Below are positions 732 to 41,130 of a stretch of DNA of 41,415 nucleotides, piece by piece. The stretch comes from an uncultured bacterium. GTDB taxonomy: Bacteria > CSSED10-310 > CAZUFC01. The notes beneath the pieces are model-generated. The model was not told the DNA's origin. It did no database searches and worked only from the letters and a program-made list of their open reading frames with translations. The stretch lies in the NCBI GenBank assembly GCA_964619725.1, contig CAZUFC010000074.1, positions 1 through 41,415 on the forward strand. Direction: 5' to 3'. Position numbers and translations under genes: made by a program. The first letter of the stretch is position 1; each line of letters starts with the position of its first letter.

Positions 732-2540
732 CGTGCGAGTCGGAGTATCAGTCGGACTCCAGGTCGAGGTCGGACTCAACGTCGGTGAACGGGTCGGACT
801 CAACGTTACCGTCGGACTCAACGTCGGCGTGCGCGTCGGGCTTAACGTCGAAGTCGGTGTGCGCGTCGGGCTTAACGTCGAAGTCGGTGTGCGCGTCGGA
901 CTCGACGTGGGCGTCGGGCTCCTTGTCGGGCTCAACGTCGGACTCGGAGTTCGCGTAGGACTCAATGTCGCCGTTGGAGTACGGGTCGGACTCAAAGTCA
1001 CAGTAGGAGTGCGCGTCGGACTTAACGTGGGCGTCGGACTCCTCGTCGGACTCAACGTCGGTGTGGGCGTGCGAGTCGGACTTAATGTCGGCGTGCGTGT
1101 GGGGCTCAAGGTCGGCGTGCGCGTAGGAGTTCGTGTCGGCGTTCGCGTCGGGGTGTTCGTCGGGCTCATTGTCGGCGTTGAAGTGGGAAGCGGGGTGGGC
1201 GGCGGCGGATCGGAATTGAAATATATGTCCAGCGTAGCGTTTCTGCTGTCTGACCAGACTACATACTTTCTGTTCTGGTTTGAATTATAAGCCGTACTGA
1301 CGGTATGATAATGCGCGGCCAAATTTGAATTCGCGTCCGACACCTGGGTGGGGGTTCCCCATGAAGACCCCGATCCTTCTACATACAGGGCTTTGCCGTC
1401 GCTTCTTCTATAAGCGAGTCTCGTAGTGGAGCCGTCCATCCACAAGCGCGGATATTGAAGATTGTAGGACCCGTCCGAAGCGGCAACGTACAGTCCGAAA
1501 TTCAATCCTTCGTCTGTGCTGTAGAAATCAAATATATCCCAGTTTCCAAAATAATCGCTTTCAAAAACAATACAAACATTACTGCCGGCTATTCGCATGT
1601 GAGGTTTTCGGTCGTCCGAAAAATTAAAATGATGATTACTCGTATAAACGAAAGCCGGCCGGGTATAATACCAGTACCCTATATTGCCGTCAGTCGAACT
1701 TATCTGCACCTCACAGGAGACATGCACGTAATTGCCGGAAAATTTAACTGTGGGATAGACGCAATCGTAACCGAATCGAAGCCAGTGAGCGTTCCAGTTG
1801 TTTCCTCCGTCTGTGGTATAAACGGTAAAAATTGAATAATAGGTGTCGCCGGTGTATATGTTCGGCCAGTTGAATGAAATTTCACTGGATGTTCCCACAG
1901 CGATGGAGGGTGATCCGCCGAAACCGCTCATGCTGGGATAACCGCCGAAATAATAGAACCCGTTAGCCCAAAAACTGGTTACGTCATTCGGATTCTCCGT
2001 CCTGATGAATGATCCGTAGGGCGTGCCGCCGATATCAATCGTCACGGCGACATAAACGTAACCGCTTGAATCCACCGTCACTTCTGGATAATAAACCCCA
2101 TTTCCCGAAGTCGTCGCATTGAAATTCCAGGAATATCCGTCCGTCGTCTGGAAAAGAAACATATAACCGTTGGAAGTATGAAAAGCTACATACGTATAAT
2201 TGCCGTAAACCGTCGTCGAAGTCTTCAGTTCATCCACTTCCACTGGAGGGTCACCGAAACTGAAACCTCCCAACAGGTAATCAAACGCATTAAAGGCATT
2301 CGTCTCTTCCAGAAATTCTATCTTTCCCGACCGCTGAAATGTCACTGGCGCAGTCTTTGGCGTCAATCCGTCCGATGAACCCGCGTAAGTCGAAACAGGC
2401 TGGACAGAATTTTGCACATTATACGCCTTACCTGTCTTCCCATTGATCTCCGGCGCCTGTCCTGCCGCACACAACGATGCAAAACCTGAAAAAAACAAAC
2501 AAGCCACAACAACCAAAGCGTTTCTTGAACTAATCCTCAT
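1..2540 (-). CDS. Secreted BNR/Asp-box beta-propeller protein with a very long Pro/Thr/Ser repeat stalk; 3' end lies outside the window
   Basis: ATG at 2540 with AAGGAG upstream. My translation stays open to the window edge (about 846 codons). It begins with the signal-peptide-like [26 protein letters not shown], has Asp-box-like motifs [15 protein letters not shown] and STDEGLNF, and becomes P/T-rich from about 1210 leftwards. It is probably missing from the ORF track because no stop codon lies in the window. Confidence 0.9.
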
Positions 2541-22641: not shown

Positions 22642-22799
22642 TTTTGCCTCCTTGCCGATTCTTGGATTACCTCTAATGTCGTCCCCTGGCAGGCTTCCCC
22701 GCCTCCATCCATATTCTAAAGTTAAACAATGTTTTGTTCAAATTTTATTTCACCCTCATCCCCTTTTTCGACCCTGAATCGCCCTGTTATAAATTTTCT

Positions 22800-22827
22800 T
22801 TGACTTTTAAACGCCTTTTGTTAGAAT
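22800..22827 (+). promoter_or_regulatory. Sigma70-like promoter for the kinase gene
   Basis: TTGACT-N16-TAGAAT with a TG extended -10. It supports the ATG at 22887 over the start at 22734. Confidence 0.55.
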
Positions 22828-22886
22828 TAATGAGGGTCTGTAGAGGATTACAGACTTTATTATCAGTTTTAAAGGGAATTCCCGAA

Positions 22887-25880
22887 ATGGCGAAAATTTT
22901 TAAACAAAAAATCCTGCTGGTCGACTTCGAATTAAAAAAGATAAAGGATACGGAAGAGTATCTTCAAAAAAACGGCTATGAAGTTATTCTTGCTTCAGAC
23001 GGGCTTGATGCCCTGGAAAAATTCGCACAGGAACAACCGGACATAGTTATACTGGAGGCGATGCTGCCTAAACTTCATGGTTTCGAAGTATCCAAAGCCA
23101 TAAAGAAAAGCGAAGGCGGTCGGGACGTTCCGGTAATATTTTTAACCGGCGTATATAAGAGCTATAAATATAAAAGGCAGGCTTTAACTGATTATCTGGC
23201 GGATGATTATTTATTGAAACCGATAAAACCGAAAGACTTGCTTGCCAAAATCAGGACGCTTCTTCCTGCGGACGGTTCGGCGCCGGCTAAAACCGATGCG
23301 CCTGTTGAGGCGGAACAAGCGCCGGAGACTGGCCGGGAAGAGGAAATATCGGCTGAAGAAGAGGAAGAAGAGCTTGATTTCGAGTCTCTTCTCAACGAGA
23401 CGTTAGCCGATTTACTGAAAGCGCCTGCGGGTGAATCCGAAGAAGTCGATCAGCAGCAGAAACAAGCTTATGACGACGTCATTGACGATACGCTATCCGG
23501 TATAATAAAAGAAAAGAAAAAAGAAAAAGCGGGACCGGATATGGAAGAACCCTCGCCTGCTGAAACCGTTGCGGATGAAAGGAAGACTCCGTCTGAACCG
23601 GAAGTTCCTGAACGGTTTATTATTGAAGGGCATGAAGAGGATGAAGAAATAGCGGAGGAAATATTCGAAGAAACGGAATATGATGAAGAGGAAGGAATTC
23701 CGTACGGCAAATACAGGTTAATCGAACAGATAGCCTTGGGCGGAATGGCCGAATTATGGAAAGCCAAACAACGGGGCGTCAAGGGTTTTGAAAAGATTGT
23801 GGCCGTTAAACGGTTGCTTCCTCATATCGCCCAGGACAGCGAATTCGTTAAAATGTTCATTGATGAAGGAAAGCTGGCGGCTCAACTCAACCATCAGAAC
23901 ATAGCGCAAATATATGAACTGGGAGAAGAGGACGGAACTTTTTATATCGCGATGGAGTATATTGTCGGCAAGGACCTGAAAAACATATTGAGGAAATCTA
24001 AAAAGGAATCGATTCCATTGACGGTGGAGCATTCGGTTTACATTGCCGTGAAAGTCTGCAGCGCGATCAATTACGCCCACAAAAAGAAGAACCTCGAAGG
24101 CAGAGACTTGAATATCGTCCATCGCGACATCAGTCCTCAAAATGTAATTATTTCCTATGAAGGAGAAATAAAACTCGTCGATTTCGGCATTGCCAAGGCT
24201 GCAGCCAAGGATTCTGTGACTCAAATGGGTGCGCTTAAGGGAAAAATCCTTTACATGTCCCCGGAACAGGCCTGGGGCCGGGCCATCGATAAACGCTCCG
24301 ACATTTTCTCAATGGGTTCGCTTTTATTTGAAATGTTGACGGGAGCTCGGCTTTTTTGGGCCGACAATGAAATGACGATTCTCGAAAAAGTCCGCCAAGC
24401 CGATGTTGAACCGACTATTGAAAAATACGACAATATCCCGGATGAATTGAAAAATATTTTACTTAAAGCTCTCAAGGCTGATCCGAATCAGCGTTATCAG
24501 ACAGCAGGCGACATGAAAAAAGACCTGCATGCGTTTCTGTTCAACCGGAACGTTACACCGGCGTCATACGACCTTTCCCTGTTCATGCGGCAATTGTTCC
24601 CTGAAGAAACGGAAGGCATTATTGAAGAAGTTCCTGATAAAACCTCTTGGCTGGAGGAAGAAGAGGAAATTCCGATTGAAATGGAACCTGTTGCCGTTGA
24701 AGTTGAAGAACAGCAGCGGGAAGAAGAAAAGGAGGAAGCGCCTGCGCCTCCGGCAGTTGAAATGAAAGAAGAGGAAGAAGAGGAGGTCGAGAAAGCGGCG
24801 GAGGTTTCTGAAGAAAAGCAGGCTGAGGAAGAGGCCGAAGTAAAGGTTGAAGAGGAGATTGACGGTCAGGATATAGCGGCGGCGCCTTCGGCAGAGGAAC
24901 AAAAGACGGCCAAGGACCGGGAGACTGCAGAGGAGTTTGCCGGGGAGTCTGAAGTATCGGTTAGCGAGCTTGACATTGAGGAAGAGTTTAACGCTGAGGA
25001 GGAAGAGGAGGAAGAATTCGATCTGGAGGAAATACTTAAACCTCCGAAGAAGCCAACTTTCAGCGACTTTTTGAAATCGACTCCGGTTTTGATCGGAATA
25101 GCCGTGGTCGCTGCCATTATCGCTGTTCCCATCCTTTACGATGTTCTCTCCCAACCCGAAATCCCTCTCCCGGCAGCAAAAACATCCTCCCCGCGCTTTT
25201 TGATGGATGCCGGCGTCGAGCCATTCCCGGCAGGCATGCCTCCGCAATTAGCCGACGCTGAAAGGATCGATGCTGAAAGGATCGAAAGGCCGCCGGTTGA
25301 AAAACCGCAGCCCGAACCCAGGACGCAGCCGAGAAGAGAGCCTGTTCCGCCTACTCCGGTTCCTCGCAGACCTACGCCGGTCAGAATAGCGGACGTTGTT
25401 TCCGATGAGGAGGAGACTGAGGCGATATCGGAAATGGAATCGCTCGGTCCCGCCGATGAATTGCCCGATTTTCAGCCCAGGAAATCTGCCGCAATTGATG
25501 AAGAACCCCAGGAAACAGCAGCAGAAGAAATTGAACCGACAGCAGCGCCCTACAAAGAACCTACGCCGGTTCCCGTTAAACGGGGCGATCTGGTTGAATT
25601 GCCGGATGTACCTCCCAGAGTCAAAACACAAGTTAAACCGCAATATCCCCGATCCGCAAGAGCACTCGGATATGAGGGCTCCGTCACTCTCAGACTGCTC
25701 ATTTCCGAAAAAGGCGATGTGCTGGATGTGGAGGCGCTCTCCGTTACCGGGCCGCCTAAAAGCGGTTTTAAAGAAGCGGCAGTCAAAGCCATTAAACGAT
25801 GGAAATTCGAACCGGCACGTTACAAAGGTGTTGAAGTGAAAACCTATTATAACGTCCTGATTCCGTTCCGACACAATTGA
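22887..25880 (+). CDS. Pseudo-receiver, Hanks-type Ser/Thr kinase, TM helix, Pro-rich linker, TonB C-terminal domain
   Basis: REC fold with IVILEAMLP; kinase motifs IALGGMAE, VAVK, HRDISPQN, DFGIAK and YMSPEQ; TM VLIGIAVVAAIIAVPILY; TonB-C PQYPRSA..EGSVTL..WKFEPA. Confidence 0.9.
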   Translation: MAKIFKQKILLVDFELKKIKDTEEYLQKNGYEVILASDGLDALEKFAQEQPDIVILEAMLPKLHGFEVSKAIKKSEGGRDVPVIFLTGVYKSYKYKRQALTDYLADDYLLKPIKPKDLLAKIRTLLPADGSAPAKTDAPVEAEQAPETGREEEISAEEEEEELDFESLLNETLADLLKAPAGESEEVDQQQKQAYDDVIDDTLSGIIKEKKKEKAGPDMEEPSPAETVADERKTPSEPEVPERFIIEGHEEDEEIAEEIFEETEYDEEEGIPYGKYRLIEQIALGGMAELWKAKQRGVKGFEKIVAVKRLLPHIAQDSEFVKMFIDEGKLAAQLNHQNIAQIYELGEEDGTFYIAMEYIVGKDLKNILRKSKKESIPLTVEHSVYIAVKVCSAINYAHKKKNLEGRDLNIVHRDISPQNVIISYEGEIKLVDFGIAKAAAKDSVTQMGALKGKILYMSPEQAWGRAIDKRSDIFSMGSLLFEMLTGARLFWADNEMTILEKVRQADVEPTIEKYDNIPDELKNILLKALKADPNQRYQTAGDMKKDLHAFLFNRNVTPASYDLSLFMRQLFPEETEGIIEEVPDKTSWLEEEEEIPIEMEPVAVEVEEQQREEEKEEAPAPPAVEMKEEEEEEVEKAAEVSEEKQAEEEAEVKVEEEIDGQDIAAAPSAEEQKTAKDRETAEEFAGESEVSVSELDIEEEFNAEEEEEEEFDLEEILKPPKKPTFSDFLKSTPVLIGIAVVAAIIAVPILYDVLSQPEIPLPAAKTSSPRFLMDAGVEPFPAGMPPQLADAERIDAERIERPPVEKPQPEPRTQPRREPVPPTPVPRRPTPVRIADVVSDEEETEAISEMESLGPADELPDFQPRKSAAIDEEPQETAAEEIEPTAAPYKEPTPVPVKRGDLVELPDVPPRVKTQVKPQYPRSARALGYEGSVTLRLLISEKGDVLDVEALSVTGPPKSGFKEAAVKAIKRWKFEPARYKGVEVKTYYNVLIPFRHN

Positions 25881-31131: not shown

Positions 31132-34083
31132 ATGCAAGCATATCCGACTCCTGAAAAGCAATCGACCACGAAACAACCGGGCGCCGGCGGCAAAAAATTT
31201 CATGAATTTTTTAAATCGAAAAACGGACGTACGATCGTTCTGCTTCTTATCCTGGCGGCGGCGGCAGCCCTGAGATATTATAAATTAGTTCATTATGAAA
31301 TCTGGTTCGATGAATCCTGCATGGTTTTGATCGCTCGCTCTGATTTATCGGAAATCCTGAACGGAAAAGCCCTTGATGTTTATCCGCCCCTTTATTTCCT
31401 GCTCCTCCATTTCCTCCTTAAAGTCGCCGATCCGCTTCTGATGCTTAGATTACCCTCCATGCTCAGCGGAACTTTCAGCCTGCTGTTTATCTTCCTGATC
31501 GCCAGAAAGCTTTTCAATACGCGCATAGCTTACTTCGCTATCGCAATGTCAATACTAAATCCCTTCCAGTTTTACTATGCCAGAGAAGGAAAAATCTATG
31601 CTCTCCTGACCTTCATGTGTCTCATTTATGTATATCTCTTTCTGAAATTAAAAGAATCTCCAGATGATAAAAAAACCTGGACCCTCTTCACCGTCACTTT
31701 CATTATTCTTCCCTATATGCATTACATCGCCGCCTCCATTCCCCTGGCCGCCTTCATTTACATCCTCGTCAATCCTCGTCTCCCTGAAAAATTCAAACGC
31801 CGCTTCTTTCTCAGCGCCCTTGCCGCAGTTATCGCATTCCTTCCCTGGATCAGAATTCTAATCATAAAAATAAATCAGACTCTGGCATCCGAAAATATAA
31901 CCTTTATTCCGCCGTTGAGCCTCAAACGGATCGTTTCGCTGTTTTACGTTTTCGCATCGGGTTTTAATTCCCCGCTGATTGCGGATTATGTCGTCTCGAT
32001 TCTCACGTTCATTTTTTTCCTTAAAGGCTTGTCCGCTTTTCGCAGATATCCGAAAAAAACTCTATTCATCTTTTTACTGTTTATCGTGCCGCCATTGCTT
32101 ATAACCATTTTTTCGATTTTTCTGCCGATGTTCATGGAAAGGTACGTCATTTACAGCGGCATTTTTTATATTATTCTGTCGGCATACGGCGTTGCATCGC
32201 TGCGGAGCAGGGTAATGAGGATAGGAATAATCAGCGTTTTCGTGGTTTTGAATGCTCTGGCGGTCAGCAATACTTATCAAAACAAGATGCCTTATCAGGC
32301 GCGCAATCCGAGCAAATTTTTTCCTGCGACGCCGCGGCGGCCATTTCGAAACATATGCGGATTTATAAACGAGTCGTACCGGGAGGGTGACGCAGTTCTG
32401 CATTTTTTACCGCAAACGAGTCTGCCCTGCCGCTTTTATCTTAAAGAAAATATACCCTCTTATCCGACGACTCTTCATCCCGATCTGATAGCCTATGAAG
32501 GATTTAAAGACCTGGGCGAAAAAATAGGAGACTATCCTGTTCCTTTATGGGAAATATTCCCTGATTATGAAAGGTTCTGGTTGATCGAATCGTACTGGGG
32601 CGTCGCCCCGGACAAGACGGTTCCCGCATGTGAGATAAATCAGTGGCTTTCTTCCCACTGCGTATTGCTGGATGAAAAGAGATTGTGGGACATAGATTTG
32701 CGGCTATATGAAAAACATCCGGTGTTCGAGGGAGCGGACAAAACGAAGGTATTGGCGGATAAGGGGGCTTTGAAATTGATAGAACTGGAAGAACCTTTAA
32801 CCGGCCAAGAGGATAAAATTTTTCGTTACAGGACGCTTCCAACCGTTCACGATGAACTTCTGGAAAATATAATGAGCATCGAGACGCTCCGTCATGATAA
32901 TGATCGTTTTTCATTTCGAGTGACTAATGTTTCGGATAAAATCATCGATTATTCGGAAACCTGGAAGTGGATCAGCGGAATACTCGAAGCGGAAAGCATG
33001 AATATATATCCGTCAAAGGTTTTAACCTGGTGGATACCTATCTGGCGACGCCCTTCCATTCCGTCGTGGGGAAATACGGTTATGCTTTCGCAAGAAATCC
33101 AGCGTTTAAAAAATGAACCAAACAGAAAGCTGGAGTTCGATCTGAGAACAAAACCCGGAAATTATGCTCTATTCGTCAGAATGCCGTTCTGGAACGTATC
33201 TTCCAAAGAAACCCGTGCTGCCGTATCTTTCTTCCTAAATGACGAAAAACTGACTCATTTCGTGCCCGTAGGATACGGCCCTTATACCTCTATGGAAACC
33301 GTCCATCTGGGTAATTTTCACTCCGACGGAAACCCTCAAAAACTCTCAATCCTCGGCGCCGGAAACGAAGATCAAAAAGTCGCCTGGCTTGACATCGACC
33401 GTTTCTTTTTCGTTAATCTGGAAAACTGCACTTTTCTCGATTGTGAAAACGCCGAACAGCTCGGAACATATGCTCACTGGTTCCTTAATAATTCCGCCAT
33501 AGAATCTCCGCATCTCAACAAATCTGTTATGACGGTCGAGACGCCTCCCCAAAGTTTTTCAAATACTCTGAGCCTGAAAATCGACCCGTCGGCTGAGCCG
33601 CGTGAGTTATGGGCCAGAATGCCGGGACTGGGCCATTACGCACCTGGTTTGCGGGCGGAAATACATATCTCAGTCACTGATCAAAAAGAAATAAAAATCG
33701 TTCAGGGGATGAGTTCAGGCATTCATCGTTCGGGCTTTATCCGGCTGGCGCGTCTTTATGCTGGTCGCTCCTATTCCGTCGACATCAAAGCCTATAATCC
33801 CTACGAACAAAAAAATGCCTTCGCTGATGCCGATTTTCTGCTCCTCACGCCCGTTTTTCTCAATGAACAGGAACAACTCAGCGTCATTTATGCCGACTGC
33901 TTTTCCACCTTCAACCTGAATCGGTCAGTTTTAAAACCGCAGGAATTTAAAGAATTTTCAGTCGCCTTGTCGAATATCCGTCCCCATGCCTCAAATAAAA
34001 ATGATCTGCTGCGCATCGATTGGGAAGAATTCGGCACTAAAACGGATTACTGCCTCCAGTTTCCCGTTACGAGTCAACCATGA
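31132..34083 (+). CDS. GT39/PMT_2-like glycosyltransferase with a large extracytoplasmic C-terminal extension
   Basis: IWFDE, DVYPPLYF, LRLPS, YYAREGKIY and ERY motifs; about 11 TM helices; two similar C-terminal beta-sandwich modules. Confidence 0.8.
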   Translation: MQAYPTPEKQSTTKQPGAGGKKFHEFFKSKNGRTIVLLLILAAAAALRYYKLVHYEIWFDESCMVLIARSDLSEILNGKALDVYPPLYFLLLHFLLKVADPLLMLRLPSMLSGTFSLLFIFLIARKLFNTRIAYFAIAMSILNPFQFYYAREGKIYALLTFMCLIYVYLFLKLKESPDDKKTWTLFTVTFIILPYMHYIAASIPLAAFIYILVNPRLPEKFKRRFFLSALAAVIAFLPWIRILIIKINQTLASENITFIPPLSLKRIVSLFYVFASGFNSPLIADYVVSILTFIFFLKGLSAFRRYPKKTLFIFLLFIVPPLLITIFSIFLPMFMERYVIYSGIFYIILSAYGVASLRSRVMRIGIISVFVVLNALAVSNTYQNKMPYQARNPSKFFPATPRRPFRNICGFINESYREGDAVLHFLPQTSLPCRFYLKENIPSYPTTLHPDLIAYEGFKDLGEKIGDYPVPLWEIFPDYERFWLIESYWGVAPDKTVPACEINQWLSSHCVLLDEKRLWDIDLRLYEKHPVFEGADKTKVLADKGALKLIELEEPLTGQEDKIFRYRTLPTVHDELLENIMSIETLRHDNDRFSFRVTNVSDKIIDYSETWKWISGILEAESMNIYPSKVLTWWIPIWRRPSIPSWGNTVMLSQEIQRLKNEPNRKLEFDLRTKPGNYALFVRMPFWNVSSKETRAAVSFFLNDEKLTHFVPVGYGPYTSMETVHLGNFHSDGNPQKLSILGAGNEDQKVAWLDIDRFFFVNLENCTFLDCENAEQLGTYAHWFLNNSAIESPHLNKSVMTVETPPQSFSNTLSLKIDPSAEPRELWARMPGLGHYAPGLRAEIHISVTDQKEIKIVQGMSSGIHRSGFIRLARLYAGRSYSVDIKAYNPYEQKNAFADADFLLLTPVFLNEQEQLSVIYADCFSTFNLNRSVLKPQEFKEFSVALSNIRPHASNKNDLLRIDWEEFGTKTDYCLQFPVTSQP

Positions 34084-36551
34084 AAAAAATCATTAACACC
34101 TTTATATTTCTTTCAATATTCGGCATCTATTTGAAAACGCTCTGCCCCACAGTATATGTGGGAGACAGCGGAGAAATAACAGCGGCATCTCATCTCCTCG
34201 GCATTCCTCATCCCACCGGCTACCCCTTCTTCCTTCTCATCGCCAAATCCTTCTCCCTGACCATACCCGTCAGCGCCGTCCACTGCCGCCTTAATATCCT
34301 GTCAGCCTTGTTCAGCTCACTCGCCATCGCCTGCCTGTTTCTCTTCCTGGTAAAATTAAAGAATTCTTCCCTGGCGGGTTGGATCGCTGCAGTCTCCATG
34401 GCCCTCTCGGCCACCTCCTGGCAAAACAACATCATCGCCGAAGTATACTCACTGAATATTTTTTTTATGAGCGCCTTTCTATTAACCCTGCAACGCTTTC
34501 TCAACCAAAAAAATTGCCGGAACTTATGCCTGACCTTCTTGACCGCAGGTTTCGGAATGCTCCATCATGGCACATTCGTTCTCTTTTCTGCACCCTTCCT
34601 GGCTCTCCTCATCCTTTACCAAATTCGTTCCCCTCGTTTTCAAAAACGACTGGTCGTCGCTTCCCTCTTTTTCGTTCTGAGCTGCTCACTGATATTGTAT
34701 CTCCCCATCCGATCCGATGCAGAACCCTGGATAAACTGGGAAAATACAAATAATCTCGACGGATTGGTCAATCATCTTACAGGAAAAGAATTCCATGAGG
34801 ACATGATCGTCTTTGATATGCCGGAAGTCCGTATGCGTCTCAAACAGCTCACGGCAGACATTGGTCATGAATTTTATTTCCCTTTAATCCTCTGCGCCTT
34901 TATCGGAATGCCGGTTATGATTCGCCGGAACCTCTTGTACGGACTGTCTCTCCTCCTTACCGTTTCTATCAGCATTCTCTTCTGCCTTACCTATCAAATT
35001 CCCGATATTCAGCCCTACTTCCTGACCCTGTGGTTCGTAGGCGCCGTATGGATCGGCGTCGGCTCTGACTTCATACTCAAATTCCTGAAAAACAATTGCC
35101 GGATGATCTGCTTCGCCTCACTCGCCGTCACTCTGCTCCTGCTCTCCTCCTTACAACCGCTCGTCAAACACTACTCGAATTGCGACTTCTCCGAAGTCTT
35201 CATCGGACGCAGCTTCGGCATCGATATCCTTAACACTCTTGAATATGACTCACAGGTCAGAACCAGAGGCTGGACCGCCCCTTTCGTTCTACTCAGCCTT
35301 CTGGCTGTCGAAAAAAGAAGACCTGACATCGCTCTAGTCACCCCGTTGCTCGATCACTTCTCTTTTCCGCTGCAATCAAACCAGATCGTCTACCACGTCT
35401 CGGCTGCCGATCGACGTCCACCCTTCGGCATGATCCTCCGTCAGGTCGGCATCTGCCTGAGAGAAGTTTATCCCGATGAAAGAATTATTCCGCGACCATG
35501 GTTCGAATCCATATACCGGGTCGTTCCCGAAATCGCTGAAAATTCACCGGACAACTTCCTTATCGATGCCGTGGTCGCTCAATATTACTACCGCCGCGCT
35601 GAAGATCAATTCGTCAAAGGAAATATCGAAAGTACTCTAAGGGACCTTAAATCCGCCGAATCCATCGCCAAAAACAATGCCCGTATATTGAATAATCTCG
35701 GTCAAATATGCCACCGAATCGGACTCAAACATAAAGCCGTCTATTACTTCAGAAAAGCCTCACAATTCAGCCCCGATCTCCCCAAAATCTGGAATAACCT
35801 CGCCGTCGCTCTTCTCCAAATGGAAAAAAATCAGGATGCTTACCAGGCTTTCAACGCCGGCATTAAATACGGAATGCCTCCCGATGCCGTCCATGAAAAC
35901 GCCGGCGACGTCTTCTTCGAAAAAGGCCACTTCGAAGCCGCTTCAAGAGAATACTTTCAGATCAGGGAAGTTAAACCCCAAAACGCAGAAGCCTTCCTTA
36001 AACTCGGTCTCTCGCTTAAAAATAGGGGCTTGACAGAAGATGCCATCATTCAATTTCAAAAATCACTCGCCGCCAATGACTCCTTCCCGGAAGCTCACCT
36101 CGAACTCGGAAAACTCTACCTCCAAAAAAACTCCTTCCAAAACGCACTCTACCACTTCCAACGCGCCATCGAGCTCAGACCTCACAGCGCCGCTATGCAT
36201 AACCTCCTCGGTAACGCCTGGTACAAATATCAAAACTTTGAACTCGCCGAAAAATATTACAAAAACGCCATCCATATCTCACCCAGAATCGAATTCTACA
36301 ATAACCTCGGCGCACTCTTTATCCAAACAGAACGATACGGACAAGCCGTCGATCTCTACCTCAATATCCTCCAGCGCGATCCTTCCTTCATCACCGCTTA
36401 CAATAACCTCGGCACCGCCTACTACTACCTGCAGAAGATCAAAAAAGCCGCCGAAATGTGGGAAAAATCTTTGCTTTTGGCTCCGGAACAAAATACAATT
36501 AAAAAGTATTTAATCGAATTGAAAACAAATTTGCCGAAGGAGGCGAAATAA
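34080..36551 (+). CDS. DUF2723/TMEM260-like protein O-mannosyltransferase-family protein with a C-terminal TPR array
   Basis: TLCPTVYVGDSGE, GIPHPTGYP, AEVYSL and YLPIRS motifs; repeated NNLG/NLLG TPR motifs; ATGA overlap with the upstream gene. Confidence 0.85.
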   Translation: MKKIINTFIFLSIFGIYLKTLCPTVYVGDSGEITAASHLLGIPHPTGYPFFLLIAKSFSLTIPVSAVHCRLNILSALFSSLAIACLFLFLVKLKNSSLAGWIAAVSMALSATSWQNNIIAEVYSLNIFFMSAFLLTLQRFLNQKNCRNLCLTFLTAGFGMLHHGTFVLFSAPFLALLILYQIRSPRFQKRLVVASLFFVLSCSLILYLPIRSDAEPWINWENTNNLDGLVNHLTGKEFHEDMIVFDMPEVRMRLKQLTADIGHEFYFPLILCAFIGMPVMIRRNLLYGLSLLLTVSISILFCLTYQIPDIQPYFLTLWFVGAVWIGVGSDFILKFLKNNCRMICFASLAVTLLLLSSLQPLVKHYSNCDFSEVFIGRSFGIDILNTLEYDSQVRTRGWTAPFVLLSLLAVEKRRPDIALVTPLLDHFSFPLQSNQIVYHVSAADRRPPFGMILRQVGICLREVYPDERIIPRPWFESIYRVVPEIAENSPDNFLIDAVVAQYYYRRAEDQFVKGNIESTLRDLKSAESIAKNNARILNNLGQICHRIGLKHKAVYYFRKASQFSPDLPKIWNNLAVALLQMEKNQDAYQAFNAGIKYGMPPDAVHENAGDVFFEKGHFEAASREYFQIREVKPQNAEAFLKLGLSLKNRGLTEDAIIQFQKSLAANDSFPEAHLELGKLYLQKNSFQNALYHFQRAIELRPHSAAMHNLLGNAWYKYQNFELAEKYYKNAIHISPRIEFYNNLGALFIQTERYGQAVDLYLNILQRDPSFITAYNNLGTAYYYLQKIKKAAEMWEKSLLLAPEQNTIKKYLIELKTNLPKEAK

Positions 36552-37892: not shown

Positions 37893-38561
37893 TCAGGCCT
37901 CGTCGGTTTTCATGTCCCCCGGTCGCCTGCCGTTTTGATAGTCGACGTCCGAAGAAAAGGGCATGGGAGAAAATCTCCGTTGAAATATCGTCTGCAAATC
38001 GCCCTCTATTAGCTTCGGACATTGCTTCGCCGCTTCGCTGATATGTTCCATGGCATCCGCGTAACTTTTCTGCTTGTAAAGCAATCGCGCCAGATTAAAA
38101 CGAATCGGCACGGCATCCTTCACCTTAATAGCTTTCAAATATTGCGAAGTCGCTTCGTTATTCTTGCCAAGCGATTCATAACAAAGCGCCAGATTAAAAC
38201 GTATTTTTCCGGAATCGCCGTAAAAAAGCGCTTTCTTGTAATAATTCACGGCATCATTAAAATAATTTTTCCTCTGCAATTCATATGCTTTTTTGGACCA
38301 GTCATCCGCCTTTATACGTAAGCTCTCATAATCAAAAAATTCGTCGAAATATCCACGGTCCGTCAGCAAAATCAGTTCTGTCAAAACGTTTTTCAGTTCC
38401 TGCCTGCTCTCGCACTCCATCTCGATCGTCATCCTGTTACCGTTGAATCTAAGTTTCCCGCCGTCGAAACGGATGGTTTTCTCATTTTCGGAATTCTTCA
38501 CTCCCGTCCGCTTAAAAATAGCGTCGATACCTTTGCCCAACACATCCTCTTCATTCTTCAA
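37893..38561 (-). CDS. TPR protein with an N-terminal ParB-like LGKGIDAIF motif
   Basis: The probable start is the TTG at 38561, 9 nt after AGGGAGG and overlapping the parA stop. About three TPRs (FNLALCY, FNLARLL). Confidence 0.75.
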   Translation of the reverse strand: MKNEEDVLGKGIDAIFKRTGVKNSENEKTIRFDGGKLRFNGNRMTIEMECESRQELKNVLTELILLTDRGYFDEFFDYESLRIKADDWSKKAYELQRKNYFNDAVNYYKKALFYGDSGKIRFNLALCYESLGKNNEATSQYLKAIKVKDAVPIRFNLARLLYKQKSYADAMEHISEAAKQCPKLIEGDLQTIFQRRFSPMPFSSDVDYQNGRRPGDMKTDEA

Positions 38562-39333
38562 TAGCTTCAACCTCCCTGGCAAAAGTTCGATAATCCCGGG
38601 CCCCTCGACTGTCCGGATCATAAAGGATTATGGGCAGCCCGTGACTGGGAGCTTCAGCAAGCCGTATGTTGGAATGAATTACGGTATCGAAAACCTGACC
38701 GTCGAAATGAGAACGCAATTCCTCCACTACCCTTTCACATAACTTTGTTCCCGTCTGATAAATCGTCGGCAGTATCCCCGATAATCTTAACTCTGGATTC
38801 AGCCTCGTCTTCACAATTTCTATCGTGTTCAATAACCGGCTCATTCCCTCCAATGCAAAAAAATGAGCCTGCACCGGCAAAATGACTTCATGCGCCGTCG
38901 TCATGGCGTTCAACGTCAGCAAACCCAACGATGGCGGACAATCCAGCAATATATAATCGTAATCTTCTTCCACATCCAATACCTTCTCCGCCAGTATGAT
39001 CTCACGCCCTATCGTATTCACCAGCTCTACTTCCGCTCCAGACAAATCCAGTCTCGCCGGCGCCAAATCCATCCTCTCTACCGCATTCTTTACTATCGCA
39101 CACTCCAAATCCGCATCAGCCCGAACCAATACGTCGTAAATCGAACGGGATAATCCGTCCGGATCGATCCCCAGCCCAATTGTGCTGTTCGCCTGCGGGT
39201 CCAAATCTATCAACAGCGTCCGACGTCCCATTTCGCTTAAACAGGCCCCTAAATTAATCGCTGTCGTCGTCTTGCCGCTCCCGCCCTTCTGATTCGCCAA
39301 GGCTATCAATCTCGTCGCGTTGCTTTTTTTCAT
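38551..39333 (-). CDS. parA: ParA/Soj-family ATPase with no adjacent parB
   Basis: Deviant Walker A NQKGGSGKTT, IDLDPQAN, DCPPSLG, ALEG and RLAEAPSHG motifs. Confidence 0.92.
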   Translation of the reverse strand: MKKSNATRLIALANQKGGSGKTTTAINLGACLSEMGRRTLLIDLDPQANSTIGLGIDPDGLSRSIYDVLVRADADLECAIVKNAVERMDLAPARLDLSGAEVELVNTIGREIILAEKVLDVEEDYDYILLDCPPSLGLLTLNAMTTAHEVILPVQAHFFALEGMSRLLNTIEIVKTRLNPELRLSGILPTIYQTGTKLCERVVEELRSHFDGQVFDTVIHSNIRLAEAPSHGLPIILYDPDSRGARDYRTFAREVEAIEE

Positions 39334-39559
39334 AAGTTGCCCACCGCTTTAAAATTATCAATATAAAACGCATGAGTCAACTGATTTCCGCTCCGATATG
39401 ATTCAAATTTTTCGTGCAAATTATTCATCACCGCTTTACTGCCCGCAGCTTTGCAAATCGAAAGGATCATCCCTTCTTCAAACTTCGGCTGCATTTTGAC
39501 TTCATTCATAAAATGATTATGCAAATCCTTTTCAGGACTCCAAAGCTTTAATTTTTTAT

Positions 39560-40435: not shown

Positions 40436-40466
40436 TAGTTTGACTCCTGGGATGGGAAGGTTCCAT

Positions 40467-40539
40467 TGGGGAGTCGGCTAATTGGTAAGCCACCTGACTC
40501 TGGATCAGGCGATTGCAGGTTCGAGTCCTGCCTCCTCAG
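40467..40539 (+). tRNA. tRNA-Gln(CTG)
   Basis: Acceptor stem TGGGGAG/CTCCTCA, anticodon arm CCTGA-CTCTGGA-TCAGG, T arm GCAGG-TTCGAGT-CCTGC; CCA not encoded. Confidence 0.95.
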
Positions 40540-40578
40540 TAGAGCCGTTCCGTTTCCAGATTATTCATCGGAGTGCCC

Positions 40579-40651
40579 GGTCCCATCGTCTAGCGGCCTA
40601 GGACATCGGCCTCTCACGCCGAAAACACGGGTTCGATTCCCGTTGGGACCA
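40579..40651 (+). tRNA. tRNA-Glu(CTC)
   Basis: Acceptor stem GGTCCCA/TGGGACC, anticodon arm TCGGC-CTCTCAC-GCCGA, T arm ACGGG-TTCGATT-CCCGT; CCA not encoded. Confidence 0.95.
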
Positions 40652-40668: not shown

Positions 40669-41130
40669 ATGAAAAAAGAACACAAACAGAACGTATTGCT
40701 GATAATCATCACCATGGTCATTGCCGTCGGCATGGTTTGGCTGAATACCTGGCAAAGGTGCCGCGAACAGTTTCGCGAAGGCGAAGCATTTTATGAACAC
40801 AACGATTATCTAAAGGCGATTACGGCTTACGAAACCGCCATTCATGCTTATACGCCGTTCAATTCCATGATTCCGAAAGCTGCTGAAAGACTCTGGGACA
40901 TAGGAATGATGTACGAGCAGAAAGGCGAATTCGATGCCGCATTGATAGCGTTGCGTTCTCTCCGGTCAAGTTTTTATGCAGTAAGAAGCCTGTATACCCC
41001 TTATCCGGAATGGATTGAGAAAACCGAAAAAAGGATTCCTGAAATCATTGAAAAACAGGAAAACGCCAGGAAAATAGCCGGAGAAAAAACATCCTCTGAA
41101 ATAATCGCCCCGCCTCCATCCCTGGAATAA
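40669..41130 (+). CDS. Membrane-anchored helical (TPR-like) hypothetical protein
   Basis: N-terminal TM helix, then TPR-like helices (GEAFYEHNDYLKAITAYETAI); starts 17 bp after tRNA-Glu. Confidence 0.75.
   Translation: MKKEHKQNVLLIIITMVIAVGMVWLNTWQRCREQFREGEAFYEHNDYLKAITAYETAIHAYTPFNSMIPKAAERLWDIGMMYEQKGEFDAALIALRSLRSSFYAVRSLYTPYPEWIEKTEKRIPEIIEKQENARKIAGEKTSSEIIAPPPSLE

Follow-up and report, generated by a model that had tools for sequence, protein, structure and literature searches.

A ParA paralogue and a TPR protein with a ParB-type N-terminal peptide: a candidate two-gene positioning module in the phylum CSSED10-310

Chromosomes and plasmids, carboxysomes, chemoreceptor arrays, flagella and division sites are all organised by ATPases of the ParA/MinD type. 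The partner protein decides the cargo, and many ParAs are still regarded as orphans. According to the accessible text of one preprint (bioRxiv 10.1101/2022.06.09.495121), the partners of these ATPases touch them with charged, disordered N-termini and the remainder of the protein serves the cargo. For the chromosomal ParABS system of M. xanthus, the available portion of PMC12462528 reports that the hydrophobic residues L11, L15, L18 and I19 of ParB mediate ParA binding, that R13 drives activation (a lysine occupies this position in about 50% of ParBs), and that a 20-residue ParB peptide suffices for stimulation of ParA when DNA is present. The locus described here probably encodes, judging from its sequence, a dedicated two-gene positioning module in which the partner of a ParA mimics the ParB activation peptide. 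No description of a TPR partner of ParA with a ParB-type motif was found in the main text of open-access papers and preprints, and public sources name members of the partner family only as 'tetratricopeptide repeat protein'.

The window, that is, the whole stretch of DNA that was analysed (41,415 nt), belongs to a 9.17-Mb metagenome bin (G000; 90.9% complete, 6.5% contamination), and every genome compared was a metagenome bin. The window carries the second ParA ATPase gene of this genome, which forms an operon on the minus strand with the gene of a small TPR protein, the partner (Table 1). An earlier note on this DNA had reported that parA is overlapped by a downstream 222-aa gene, and this arrangement was found, with an overlap of 11 nt; the LGKGIDAIF motif that the note had located in the product mapped exactly to residues L8-F16. 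The protein start given there, MKNEEDV, held up in part: the 222-aa form is supported by one public gene call, and its initial M is a TTG codon (38561) read as methionine. Another public gene call gives a 216-aa form from GTG 38543, and the motif lies inside both forms. The operon probably ends at the hairpin at the partner stop codon. A promoter scan of the region gave counts that were not above those of shuffled sequences, and no promoter is claimed. A 64-aa open reading frame at 39330-39524(-), which has an ATGA overlap with the parA start, was considered and was not included in the conserved module; it had no Pfam family, and a search of the 13 other genomes of the phylum gave no homologue.

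Table 1. Positions of the features of the parA/partner operon in the window.
Feature	Position	Strand	Remarks
Module parA	38551..39333	-	260-aa Soj-like ParA paralogue; AAA_31 match
Partner gene	37893..38561	-	222 aa, TTG start; ParB-type N-terminal peptide, three-strand/one-helix domain, three TPRs and conserved tail
LGKGIDAIF, L8-F16, ParB-like ParA-interaction motif	38514..38540	-	Conserved block V7-T19 = 38505-38543
Coupling junction	38551..38575	-	GGAGG 38571-38575, 9-nt spacer, TTG start 38559-38561; parA stop TGA 38551-38553 within the first codons of the partner
Small beta-beta-beta-alpha domain, residues 27-68	38358..38483	-	AlphaFold2 model, pLDDT about 84-86
TPR region, residues 78-180, three repeats and flanking helices	38022..38330	-	Pfam, model and Foldseek
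Post-TPR tail, residues 189-197, LQTIFQRRF	37971..37997	-	Family pattern LFxxRFGxxK
Terminator-like hairpin at partner stop codon	37883..37902	-	Position only; number of such sites in the region not above shuffles

The window ParA matched the AAA_31 family with an E value of 2e-62 (210.6 bits; cutoff 27), and its best PDB match was M. xanthus ParA (8RAY, E 3e-72). The deviant Walker A motif reads NQKGGSGKTT, with K16, G17, G18, K21 and T22 invariant in alignment A2, as were D43, D45 and N49 of motif 2 and D131 of Walker B; the Walker A of the module ParA homologues contains KGGS/AAKT. In the accessible text of PMC12462528, the residues of M. xanthus ParA that match D43, D45 and N49 are D58, D60 and N64. 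The window protein was 49% identical to the canonical ParA encoded on contig C87 of the same genome; its identity to the module-type ParAs of eight related genomes was 59-62%, compared to 46-51% for canonical ParAs. Module and canonical ParAs separated in the tree (support 87/88), and 15 alignment columns discriminated between them. A ParA-like gene on contig C301 of genome G002 fell within the module clade, where its branch was very long, and its position was treated as unreliable.

The ParB-peptide pocket, as given for M. xanthus in the available part of PMC12462528, was transferred manually to the module ParAs through the alignment with 8RAY. The residues at the positions of Y81, V116, E117, L118, L150, L152, L155, E176, L181, T184, L187 and L192 were conserved in 12/12 module ParAs, and the pocket residues were common to both ParA classes. 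Around Y81 lies an acidic cluster; two of its members, at the positions of E82 and D110, are D/D in the window ParA and H/H in the other 11 of the 12. Mutation of R238 of M. xanthus ParA abolishes DNA binding; its equivalent is R224 in the window ParA and was R or K in all 12 module ParAs. Two arginines that were invariant in nine canonical ParAs were replaced in 12/12 module ParAs (R by G in 'DARTN' and R by M or S in 'PRN'), with basic residues instead at +2 and -1, and the window ParA has H/S at the second site. Because of these replacements and the H/S of the window protein, nucleoid binding by the module ParA is uncertain. The module ParA does not have a C-terminal amphipathic helix, and its C-terminus is acidic.

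Pfam analysis of the partner gave TPR_2 (7e-11), TPR_1 (4e-9), TPR_16 and TPR_8 above their cutoffs, with the best stretches at about residues 100-185. In the AlphaFold2 model (mean pLDDT 80), a low-confidence N-terminus (residues 1-24, pLDDT below 50-60) is followed by three strands (27-32, 35-40 and 43-48), a helix (56-68) and seven TPR-type helices (78-180); residues 181-200 had a pLDDT of 77-86. The best Foldseek matches of the TPR region were 3-repeat consensus TPR modules (E about 2e-5), for example 2wqh, with an rmsd of 1.0 A over 97 columns. These results agreed with the small alpha/beta region and approximately three TPRs that had been described from the letters alone. In the tail, F193 was invariant in the partner family alignment and R196 was present in at least 90%. 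When the N-terminal 82-residue model was compared to the PDB with Foldseek, nothing was found at E<=0.001 (roadblock/MglB and a 47-residue 'cdomain' chain, both with E>1, were ignored). An ESM Atlas search with residues 1-95 gave no usable match, and a PDB sequence search with the partner family profile returned generic TPR matches only.

The earlier note had also seen neither a ParB CTPase nor an HTH motif in the partner, and Pfam bore this out: no match to the ParB_N CTPase domain with its GxxRxxA/GERR box was obtained at E<=1, and neither an HTH parS-binding domain nor a ParB C-terminal dimerisation domain was found among what were exclusively TPR families. Since these three domains are absent, a parS-clamp mechanism is impossible for the partner. 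An hhalign comparison of the partner with eight ParBs of the phylum gave a probability of 1.9% and no ParB relationship beyond the peptide; on this result, the proposal that the partner is a degenerate ParB was rejected for the protein body.

A whole-protein search of 40 relatives identified full-length partner homologues (28-34% identity) in 8/13 other CSSED10-310 genomes and in 0/27 genomes outside the phylum, and a ParA was encoded directly upstream in 8/8 cases. The combination of parA with a downstream motif-TPR gene, for which the earlier note had suggested a search, is thus present in related genomes, with both the motif and the ParA adjacency retained. The coupling geometry was also conserved; the GGAGG, 9-nt spacer and start codon were arranged identically in the window and all eight homologues, and the overlap with parA was 11 nt in the window and seven of them and 14 nt in G005. 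In six of six metagenome loci the partner was preceded by a module-type ParA, one of which was identical to that of G008; the scan had been seeded with the motif, which makes its presence at these loci circular; this does not apply to the ParA adjacency. When the N-terminal 95 aa were used, without such a seed, for a HMMER scan of 1.84 billion representatives, eight matches were obtained. Six were family members, including the window's own, and all of these had the N-terminal motif; the other two were unrelated repeat proteins.

Other searches were less informative. A whole-protein word-index search, with an index that was too insensitive, returned only the partner itself and one generic TPR protein. 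A profile search with alignment A3 returned 72 matches, all of them long generic TPR proteins, since with four full-length rows the TPR columns dominated the profile, and it was uninformative on fused forms. Nothing partner-like was seen downstream of the other ParA-like genes of G002 and G004 (L046-L048). No conserved cargo gene was found beside the module, and the genes around it were not the same in the window as in the other genomes.

No other part of the partner is as conserved as the peptide, which is nearly invariant across a family with about 30% overall identity. Residues L8, G9, K10, G11, I12, A14, I15, F16 and T19 were invariant in 10/10 members with 25-34% identity to the window protein, and in 15/15 partner N-termini. 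These 15 loci all belong to one candidate phylum, some of them being close kin, and represent considerably fewer than 15 independent observations. Synonymous codon differences were found among the homologues all along the motif. The earlier note had considered that the true start might lie downstream of the motif; the homologues start at ATG or GTG codons upstream of it, and at V7 and L8 they mostly have GTT/GTC and CTG/CTC, none of which is a start codon. L8-F16 fits the pattern L11-G-R13-G-L15-x-A-L18-I19 of M. xanthus ParB, as given in the accessible text of PMC12462528, in all four of its hydrophobic positions as well as in the basic residue at the centre. The basic residues of the N-terminal segment are K10, K17 and R18.

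The canonical parAB that the earlier note had proposed to look for was found as a parA-parB operon on contig C87, and its ParB begins MKKRGLGKGLGALIP. The co-resident peptides are LGKGIDAIF in the partner and LGKGLGALI in ParB; by class, the distinguishing positions are I/acidic/I/F in partners and mostly L/x/L/[IL] in ParBs, one of which has F at the first. The pattern LG[KR]G[LIVM]x[AS][LIVMF] occurred three times in the 9.17-Mb genome (17,915 stop-to-stop frames with a minimum length of 100 aa, 4.35 million residues): in the canonical ParB, in the window partner and in one internal membrane segment, so that ParB provided the only other N-terminus with this pattern.

Taken together, the sequence evidence favours, with moderate confidence, a self-contained module in which a ParA paralogue of Soj descent is paired with a dedicated partner. 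The partner has the genetic features of the adaptor class: its gene adjoins that of its ATPase, its N-terminus is flexible and charged, and its TPR body is a protein-binding module. In the proposed mechanism, the disordered N-terminal peptide (about residues 5-20, with the core L8-G-K10-G-I12-D-A-I15-F16) would imitate the ParA-interaction motif of chromosomal ParB and dock in a pocket formed on the window ParA by V102, L136, L138, L141, I173 and L178. K10 would touch the Y66/D67/D96/E103 site of ParA, and ATP hydrolysis would be stimulated. The body of the partner, with its three-strand/one-helix domain, 3-TPR module and LFxxRFG tail, would tie ParA to something other than DNA, which may be a protein cargo, a self-formed scaffold or an envelope or pole landmark. 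The nucleoid would probably still be the matrix for the ParA dimers, as the R238-equivalent arginine is kept. The two arginine replacements, the histidines in the acidic cluster of 11 of the 12 module ParAs and the lack of a conserved neighbouring cargo gene count against this reading. Complex prediction for the module ParA dimer with two ATP, two Mg and partner residues 1-40 (own alignments) gave a score of 0.00 in both runs and was counted neither for nor against this mechanism. The earlier claim of a two-gene activation module is therefore strongly supported in its structural half, which is a conserved, translationally coupled module; its functional half, that is, binding, ATPase activation, matrix and cargo, is what we infer.

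It is possible, although rather unlikely, that the module ParA segregates the chromosome and that the TPR protein is a landmark, anchor or bridge, which either tethers or activates ParA at the pole or envelope or binds ParB via its TPRs and provides the peptide in trans as a 'split ParB'. One argument for this explanation comes from four genomes of one family (G009, G010, G011 and G012), where the module ParA was the only strong AAA_31/Soj-type ParA found (E<1e-60; other matches E>1e-12). A canonical ParA was not found in G009 and G010 (92-93% complete), the ParB of which (CTPase motif GERRWRA) has no ParA-binding peptide and lies behind a gene that does not encode a ParA; that the TPR partner in these genomes keeps its peptide counts, on the other side, for the independence of the module from the canonical system. 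Conservation of the R238 equivalent in the module ParAs and the resemblance of the peptide to that of chromosomal ParB, rather than to a diverged plasmid or orphan type, would also be consistent with segregation. However, at least five module-bearing genomes (G000, G003, G005, G007 and G008) also have a complete canonical parAB, the ParB of which bears its own peptide. The loss of the ParB peptide where canonical ParA is missing suggests that ParB does not feed the module ParA. Across the phylum the ParB motif goes with ParA adjacency, which favours the two-gene module: LG[KR]G[LF]x[AS]L was carried by 9/9 ParBs that adjoin a canonical ParA and the motif by 0/5 ParB-like genes without an adjacent ParA, in an inspection that left out seven weaker ParB_N matches (G005:C45, three in G003, G000:C120, G004:C195 and G001:C114). 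Contact between the TPRs and ParB is hypothetical, and ParB without ParA also occurs in other bacteria.

A regulatory role by mimicry was considered improbable. The TPR protein would in that case be no cargo adaptor but a checkpoint or inhibitor: it would vie with ParB for ATPases of the ParA type, the canonical ParA among them, and either titrate these or activate them too early. The ParB motif core is nearly identical in two proteins of one genome and the pocket residues do not differ between the ParA classes; because LGKGIDAIF is so close to LGKGLGALI, cross-talk with canonical ParA or a role as a modulator of chromosome segregation is possible. Nevertheless, the module and its invariant peptide persist in the four genomes in which canonical ParA was not found, translational coupling joins the partner in every case to a ParA paralogue of its own, and the class-specific differences in the peptide and in ParA (15 columns) fit insulation, not cross-talk. 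Finally, a chance or convergent ParB-like N-terminus on an ordinary TPR protein that is co-transcribed with ParA is highly improbable and already disfavoured, for although the shared segment has only about nine residues, profile-profile comparison with ParB found nothing and TPR proteins are very abundant in the genome (many TPR-only matches in the whole-protein search), the motif has stayed invariant in an otherwise diverged partner, recurs in the genome at no other N-terminus than that of ParB, and lies at the extreme N-terminus behind the same ParA paralogue at 15/15 loci.

The dedicated module of a ParA paralogue and a peptide-bearing partner also invites a more speculative extension, which we consider doubtful: a ParB peptide may have been transplanted onto a TPR scaffold, so that positioning became independent of DNA and two ParA paralogues of one cell must discriminate between near-identical peptides. 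In G009 and G010, and probably in G011 and G012, the TPR protein would then be the sole activator of ParA, perhaps supplying the missing peptide of ParB in trans, or the ATPase may have been fully re-purposed. If true, this would be a natural example of the modular re-wiring of a ParA motor through peptide transplantation.

Several consequences follow for the study of ParA partners. Two ParAs that are 49% identical reside in one cell with the peptides LGKGIDAIF and LGKGLGALI, which provides a natural test of specificity, and four peptide positions and 15 ParA columns are candidate specificity determinants. By sequence, the ParB peptide appears to be a portable module. For the phylum CSSED10-310, all knowledge of which comes from metagenome bins, the operon also offers a first access to the organisation of the cell.

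Among described systems, chromosomal ParABS (Soj/Spo0J; M. xanthus, H. pylori and T. thermophilus) is similar in its closely related Soj-type ATPase, a partner gene directly downstream, the LG(K/R)G-h-x-A-h-h peptide and the pocket residues. The module partner differs in its lack of the ParB_N CTPase, HTH and C-terminal dimerisation domains, the body being composed of a three-strand/one-helix domain and TPRs, and in the peptide, where both L of the ParB type are consistently replaced by I (the first of them is F in one ParB), x is acidic and F stands in place of I/L. McdB, the partner of McdA in carboxysome positioning, is a disordered, coiled-coil, condensate-forming protein and in this respect differs from a folded TPR protein. 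McdA/McdB nevertheless resembles the module, as described in the accessible text of PMC6328274, PMC12139897 and 10.1101/2022.06.09.495121, in that two genes encode a ParA-type ATPase and a small partner that does not bind DNA and, via its N-terminal region, connects the ATPase with a protein cargo. The module peptide, however, is of the canonical ParB type, no search revealed a sequence relationship to McdB, and no carboxysome or BMC genes were found nearby. In PomX/PomY/PomZ, which positions the division site of M. xanthus, a short N-terminal peptide of PomX, which is not a ParB, activates a ParA/MinD ATPase, according to the available portions of PMC7993993 and PMC13170346; PomX is a large scaffold in a three-protein system, whereas the module has only two genes and its partner is a TPR protein of 222 aa, and no homology was detected. 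ParC/ParP and PpfA/TlpT, which position chemotaxis arrays (10.1101/2022.06.09.495121, accessible text), and also MinD/MinE likewise combine a ParA/MinD ATPase with a dedicated partner that has an N-terminal activating segment, but their partner folds and binding sites are different and MinE binds another site on MinD; unlike these systems, the module has no adjacent chemotaxis genes and its ParA has no C-terminal amphipathic helix. Compared to all of these, the operon is likely to represent a new kind of intracellular positioning module, one that adds a new family of ParA partners in which the candidate ParA-contacting element can be recognised by eye as a copy of the chromosomal ParB motif.

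The TPR protein gene (the partner) overlaps the parA stop codon by 11 nt in the window, and a GGAGG sequence lies 9 nt 5' of its TTG start. This arrangement confirmed the earlier note's account of a 222-aa gene that follows parA with an overlapping stop and start. One public annotation source gives the same 222-aa protein and another a 216-aa form starting at GTG 38543; both contain the motif within the N-terminus (M)KNEEDV-LGKGIDAIF-KRT. The best solved relative of the window ParA was M. xanthus ParA (8RAY, residues 21-274 with D60A; E 3e-72), followed by the Soj proteins of T. thermophilus and H. pylori. The 64-aa ORF adjoining parA matched no Pfam family and lacked homologues in the 13 other genomes of the phylum; it could be a leader gene specific to this lineage, or no gene at all.

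Positions of the parA-partner module and other features in the window
Feature	Position	Strand	Details
Module parA	38551-39333	minus	260 aa; Pfam AAA_31, E 2e-62
Partner gene	start 38561, stop 37893-37895	minus	222 aa; downstream of parA
Conserved partner tail	37971-37997	minus	modelled beside TPR region with fair confidence
Terminator-like hairpin	at partner stop codon
64-aa ORF	39330-39524	minus	stop overlaps parA start (ATGA)
tRNA-Gln(CTG), tRNA-Glu(CTC)	40466-40651	plus	~1.1 kb from parA on the side away from the partner; strand opposite to parA
153-aa protein	40669-41130	plus	after tRNAs; N-terminal hydrophobic segment, TPRs (TPR_16, E 8.5e-8)
1048-aa protein	22734-25880	plus	response-regulator receiver, Ser/Thr protein kinase, C-terminal TonB_C; unusual architecture
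Two large membrane glycosyltransferase-like genes	31132-36551	plus	consecutive, ends overlapping; PMT_2 (983 aa) and TMEM260-like with many TPRs (823 aa)

According to the M. xanthus study (PMC12462528), the four hydrophobic residues of the ParB motif (L11-G-R13-G-L15-x-A-L18-I19) mediate binding, ATPase stimulation needs R13, which is Lys in about half of ParBs, and a 20-residue ParB peptide is sufficient for ParA stimulation provided that DNA is there. Every functional position of this motif was suitably filled in the partner (L8-G-K10-G-I12-D-A-I15-F16). Canonical ParBs of the phylum (n = 9) read LG[KR]G[LF]x[AS]L[IL], compared to which the four variable positions were consistently I, acidic, I and F in the partner family; together with 15 ParA alignment columns that discriminate the module from the canonical class, these positions are candidate specificity determinants. 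A scan of the 9.17-Mb genome as 17,915 stop-to-stop frames of at least 100 aa gave three occurrences of a relaxed ParB-type pattern, one each in the canonical ParB, the partner and the interior of a membrane segment. The canonical parA-parB operon was located on contig C87 (ParB N-terminus MKKRGLGKGLGALIP), and the window ParA, 49% identical to the canonical ParA of the same genome, is therefore a second, ParB-less paralogue.

Identity to the window ParA was 59-62% for module ParAs and 46-51% for canonical ParAs of the same phylum, and a tree parted the two groups with support of 87/88, save for one long-branch sequence of uncertain placement. Sites reported in PMC12462528 were transferred from M. 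xanthus ParA to the window ParA through HMMER alignments (to obtain window numbering, subtract 15 from the M. xanthus number ahead of about residue 71 and 14 beyond it). All 12 module ParAs retained the hydrophobic pocket in which substitution weakens ParB binding (V116, L150, L152, L155, L187, L192), the nearby residues with NMR shifts (E117, L118, E176, L181, T184) and Y81, positioned opposite the ParB peptide's central Arg/Lys. The E82 and D110 positions were Asp/Asp in the window ParA and His/His in the other eleven. The position of R238, where the R238E substitution removes non-specific DNA binding by M. xanthus ParA, was R or K in 12/12. Every module ParA lacked two arginines that are invariant in the nine canonical ParAs, having G and M/S in their place, with new basic residues at +2 and -1; the window ParA has H/S at the second site. 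Because the R238 position was kept but these two arginines were replaced, matrix binding by the module ParA is at most plausible.

Pfam and NCBIfam matches of the partner were confined to TPR families (about residues 96-185), and neither a CTPase domain nor an HTH was found, in agreement with the TPR body described from the sequence earlier. Since these features define ParB, the partner is not a ParB; no relationship to ParB was found outside the peptide (hhalign probability 1.9%). A role in chromosome segregation, with this protein acting as an anchor or a ParB bridge, appears unlikely. An AlphaFold2 model built from ten family members (mean pLDDT 80) comprised a low-confidence N-terminus (residues 1-24), strands at 27-32, 35-40 and 43-48, a helix at 56-68, seven TPR-type helices at 78-180 and a short ordered tail. 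Its TPR region superposed on three-repeat consensus TPR modules, and the small N-terminal domain had no significant match in a PDB fold search. The tail (LFxxRFGxxK) was the second conserved element of the ten-sequence family alignment; it may serve in docking or occupy the protein's own TPR groove as a ligand, and we speculate that the three repeats and the tail mediate peptide-in-groove binding, possibly self-association.

Across the phylum, the peptide was present in 9/9 ParBs adjoining a canonical ParA and in 0/5 ParB-like genes without an adjacent ParA, a pattern that, as judged from gene content, links retention of the peptide to having a cognate ParA. Protein and family searches found no canonical ParA in two relatives, G009 and G010 (92-93% complete). 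Their ParBs (L051 on C9 and L050 on C16, respectively) kept the GERRWRA CTPase box and had no LG[KR]G peptide, that of G009 carrying a degenerate GLGDAF, and a non-ParA gene preceded parB instead of parA. Both genomes keep the module with its invariant peptide; as they belong to one genus, they represent essentially one evolutionary event. Two further relatives, G011 and G012 (60% and 78% complete), had the module ParA only. The presence of a module ParA and no canonical ParA in these four genomes indicates that the module is independent of canonical ParA, and it is quite improbable that the partner is a mimicry-based regulator of the latter. ParB_N proteins of a second type (ELISENPEQPRRKF...GERRWRA), which lack a ParA-binding peptide and have no ParA next to them, were seen in the window's genome (L001, contig C100, about 988-1857, minus strand), G006 (L058) and G011 (L059); the L001 frame has no obvious ATG/GTG/TTG start 5' of the ParB_N domain.

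Relatives were sought in the 40 nearest genomes using the whole partner protein, the motif not serving as a seed. Full-length relatives (28-34% identity) were found in 8/13 same-phylum genomes, and the 27 genomes outside the phylum gave TPR-region matches only. In all eight, ParA was directly upstream, GGAGG preceded an ATG/GTG start by 9 nt and the N-terminus was MKSD(x)ENVLGKGIEAIF; the overlap with parA was 11 nt in seven and 14 nt in G005. The V7 and L8 codons of the homologues were mostly GTT/GTC and CTG/CTC, which are unable to start translation, so the motif is translated and a start downstream of it is contradicted. Synonymous differences occurred at nearly every motif codon, the amino acids being constant except for D/E. 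The ten-sequence alignment contained an invariant cluster (L8 G9 K10 G11 I12 A14 I15 F16 T19), and outside it the family sequences were 25-34% identical to the window protein. When the first 95 residues of the partner were run by HMMER against 1.84 billion representative proteins, eight matched: two unrelated repeat proteins and six family members, including the window's own protein, all with VLGKGI[DE]AIF at about residues 2-22. Six metagenome contigs carried the partner gene with a module-type ParA upstream in every case; as the motif itself had served as the seed for finding these contigs, their evidential value lies in the ParA adjacency alone. The partner relatives belong to candidate division CSSED10-310, and the module occurred in 9/14 of its genomes, the window's genome included, in a dataset of metagenome bins from a single phylum whose members are related to each other. 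With ParA adjoining throughout, the absence of any functional link between the two proteins is very improbable.

Neighbouring genes were not conserved between the window (PMT_2/TMEM260-like glycosyltransferases, an ABC importer and tRNAs) and the relatives (purA and a conserved gene of ~481-486 aa on the opposite strand). A 593-aa ORF without a Pfam family precedes the glycosyltransferase-like pair. At L046 (contig C62 of a related genome, G004), ParA/MinD-like ATPase genes adjoin a small ORF that may encode a GvpA-like gas-vesicle protein.

The reading best supported by these computational comparisons is that ParA and its partner form a dedicated module: the partner N-terminus would mimic the ParB activation peptide and the folded remainder would link the ATPase to a non-DNA target. 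Of the peptide-activated, two-gene positioning system first proposed, the conserved coupled module and the ParB-type peptide are upheld, and the ParA pocket is retained; activation by the peptide and positioning stay proposals. This design fits the general rule for ParA/MinD partners (10.1101/2022.06.09.495121). No description of a TPR partner of ParA with a ParB-type motif was found in open-access papers and preprints, and the family is a previously undescribed one within the known systems of ParA/MinD ATPases and peptide-bearing partners. The partner would work like the N-terminus of ParB, yet lacks the features that define ParB; the module is nearest to ParAB in sequence and to McdAB, PomXYZ, ParC/ParP and PpfA/TlpT in logic.
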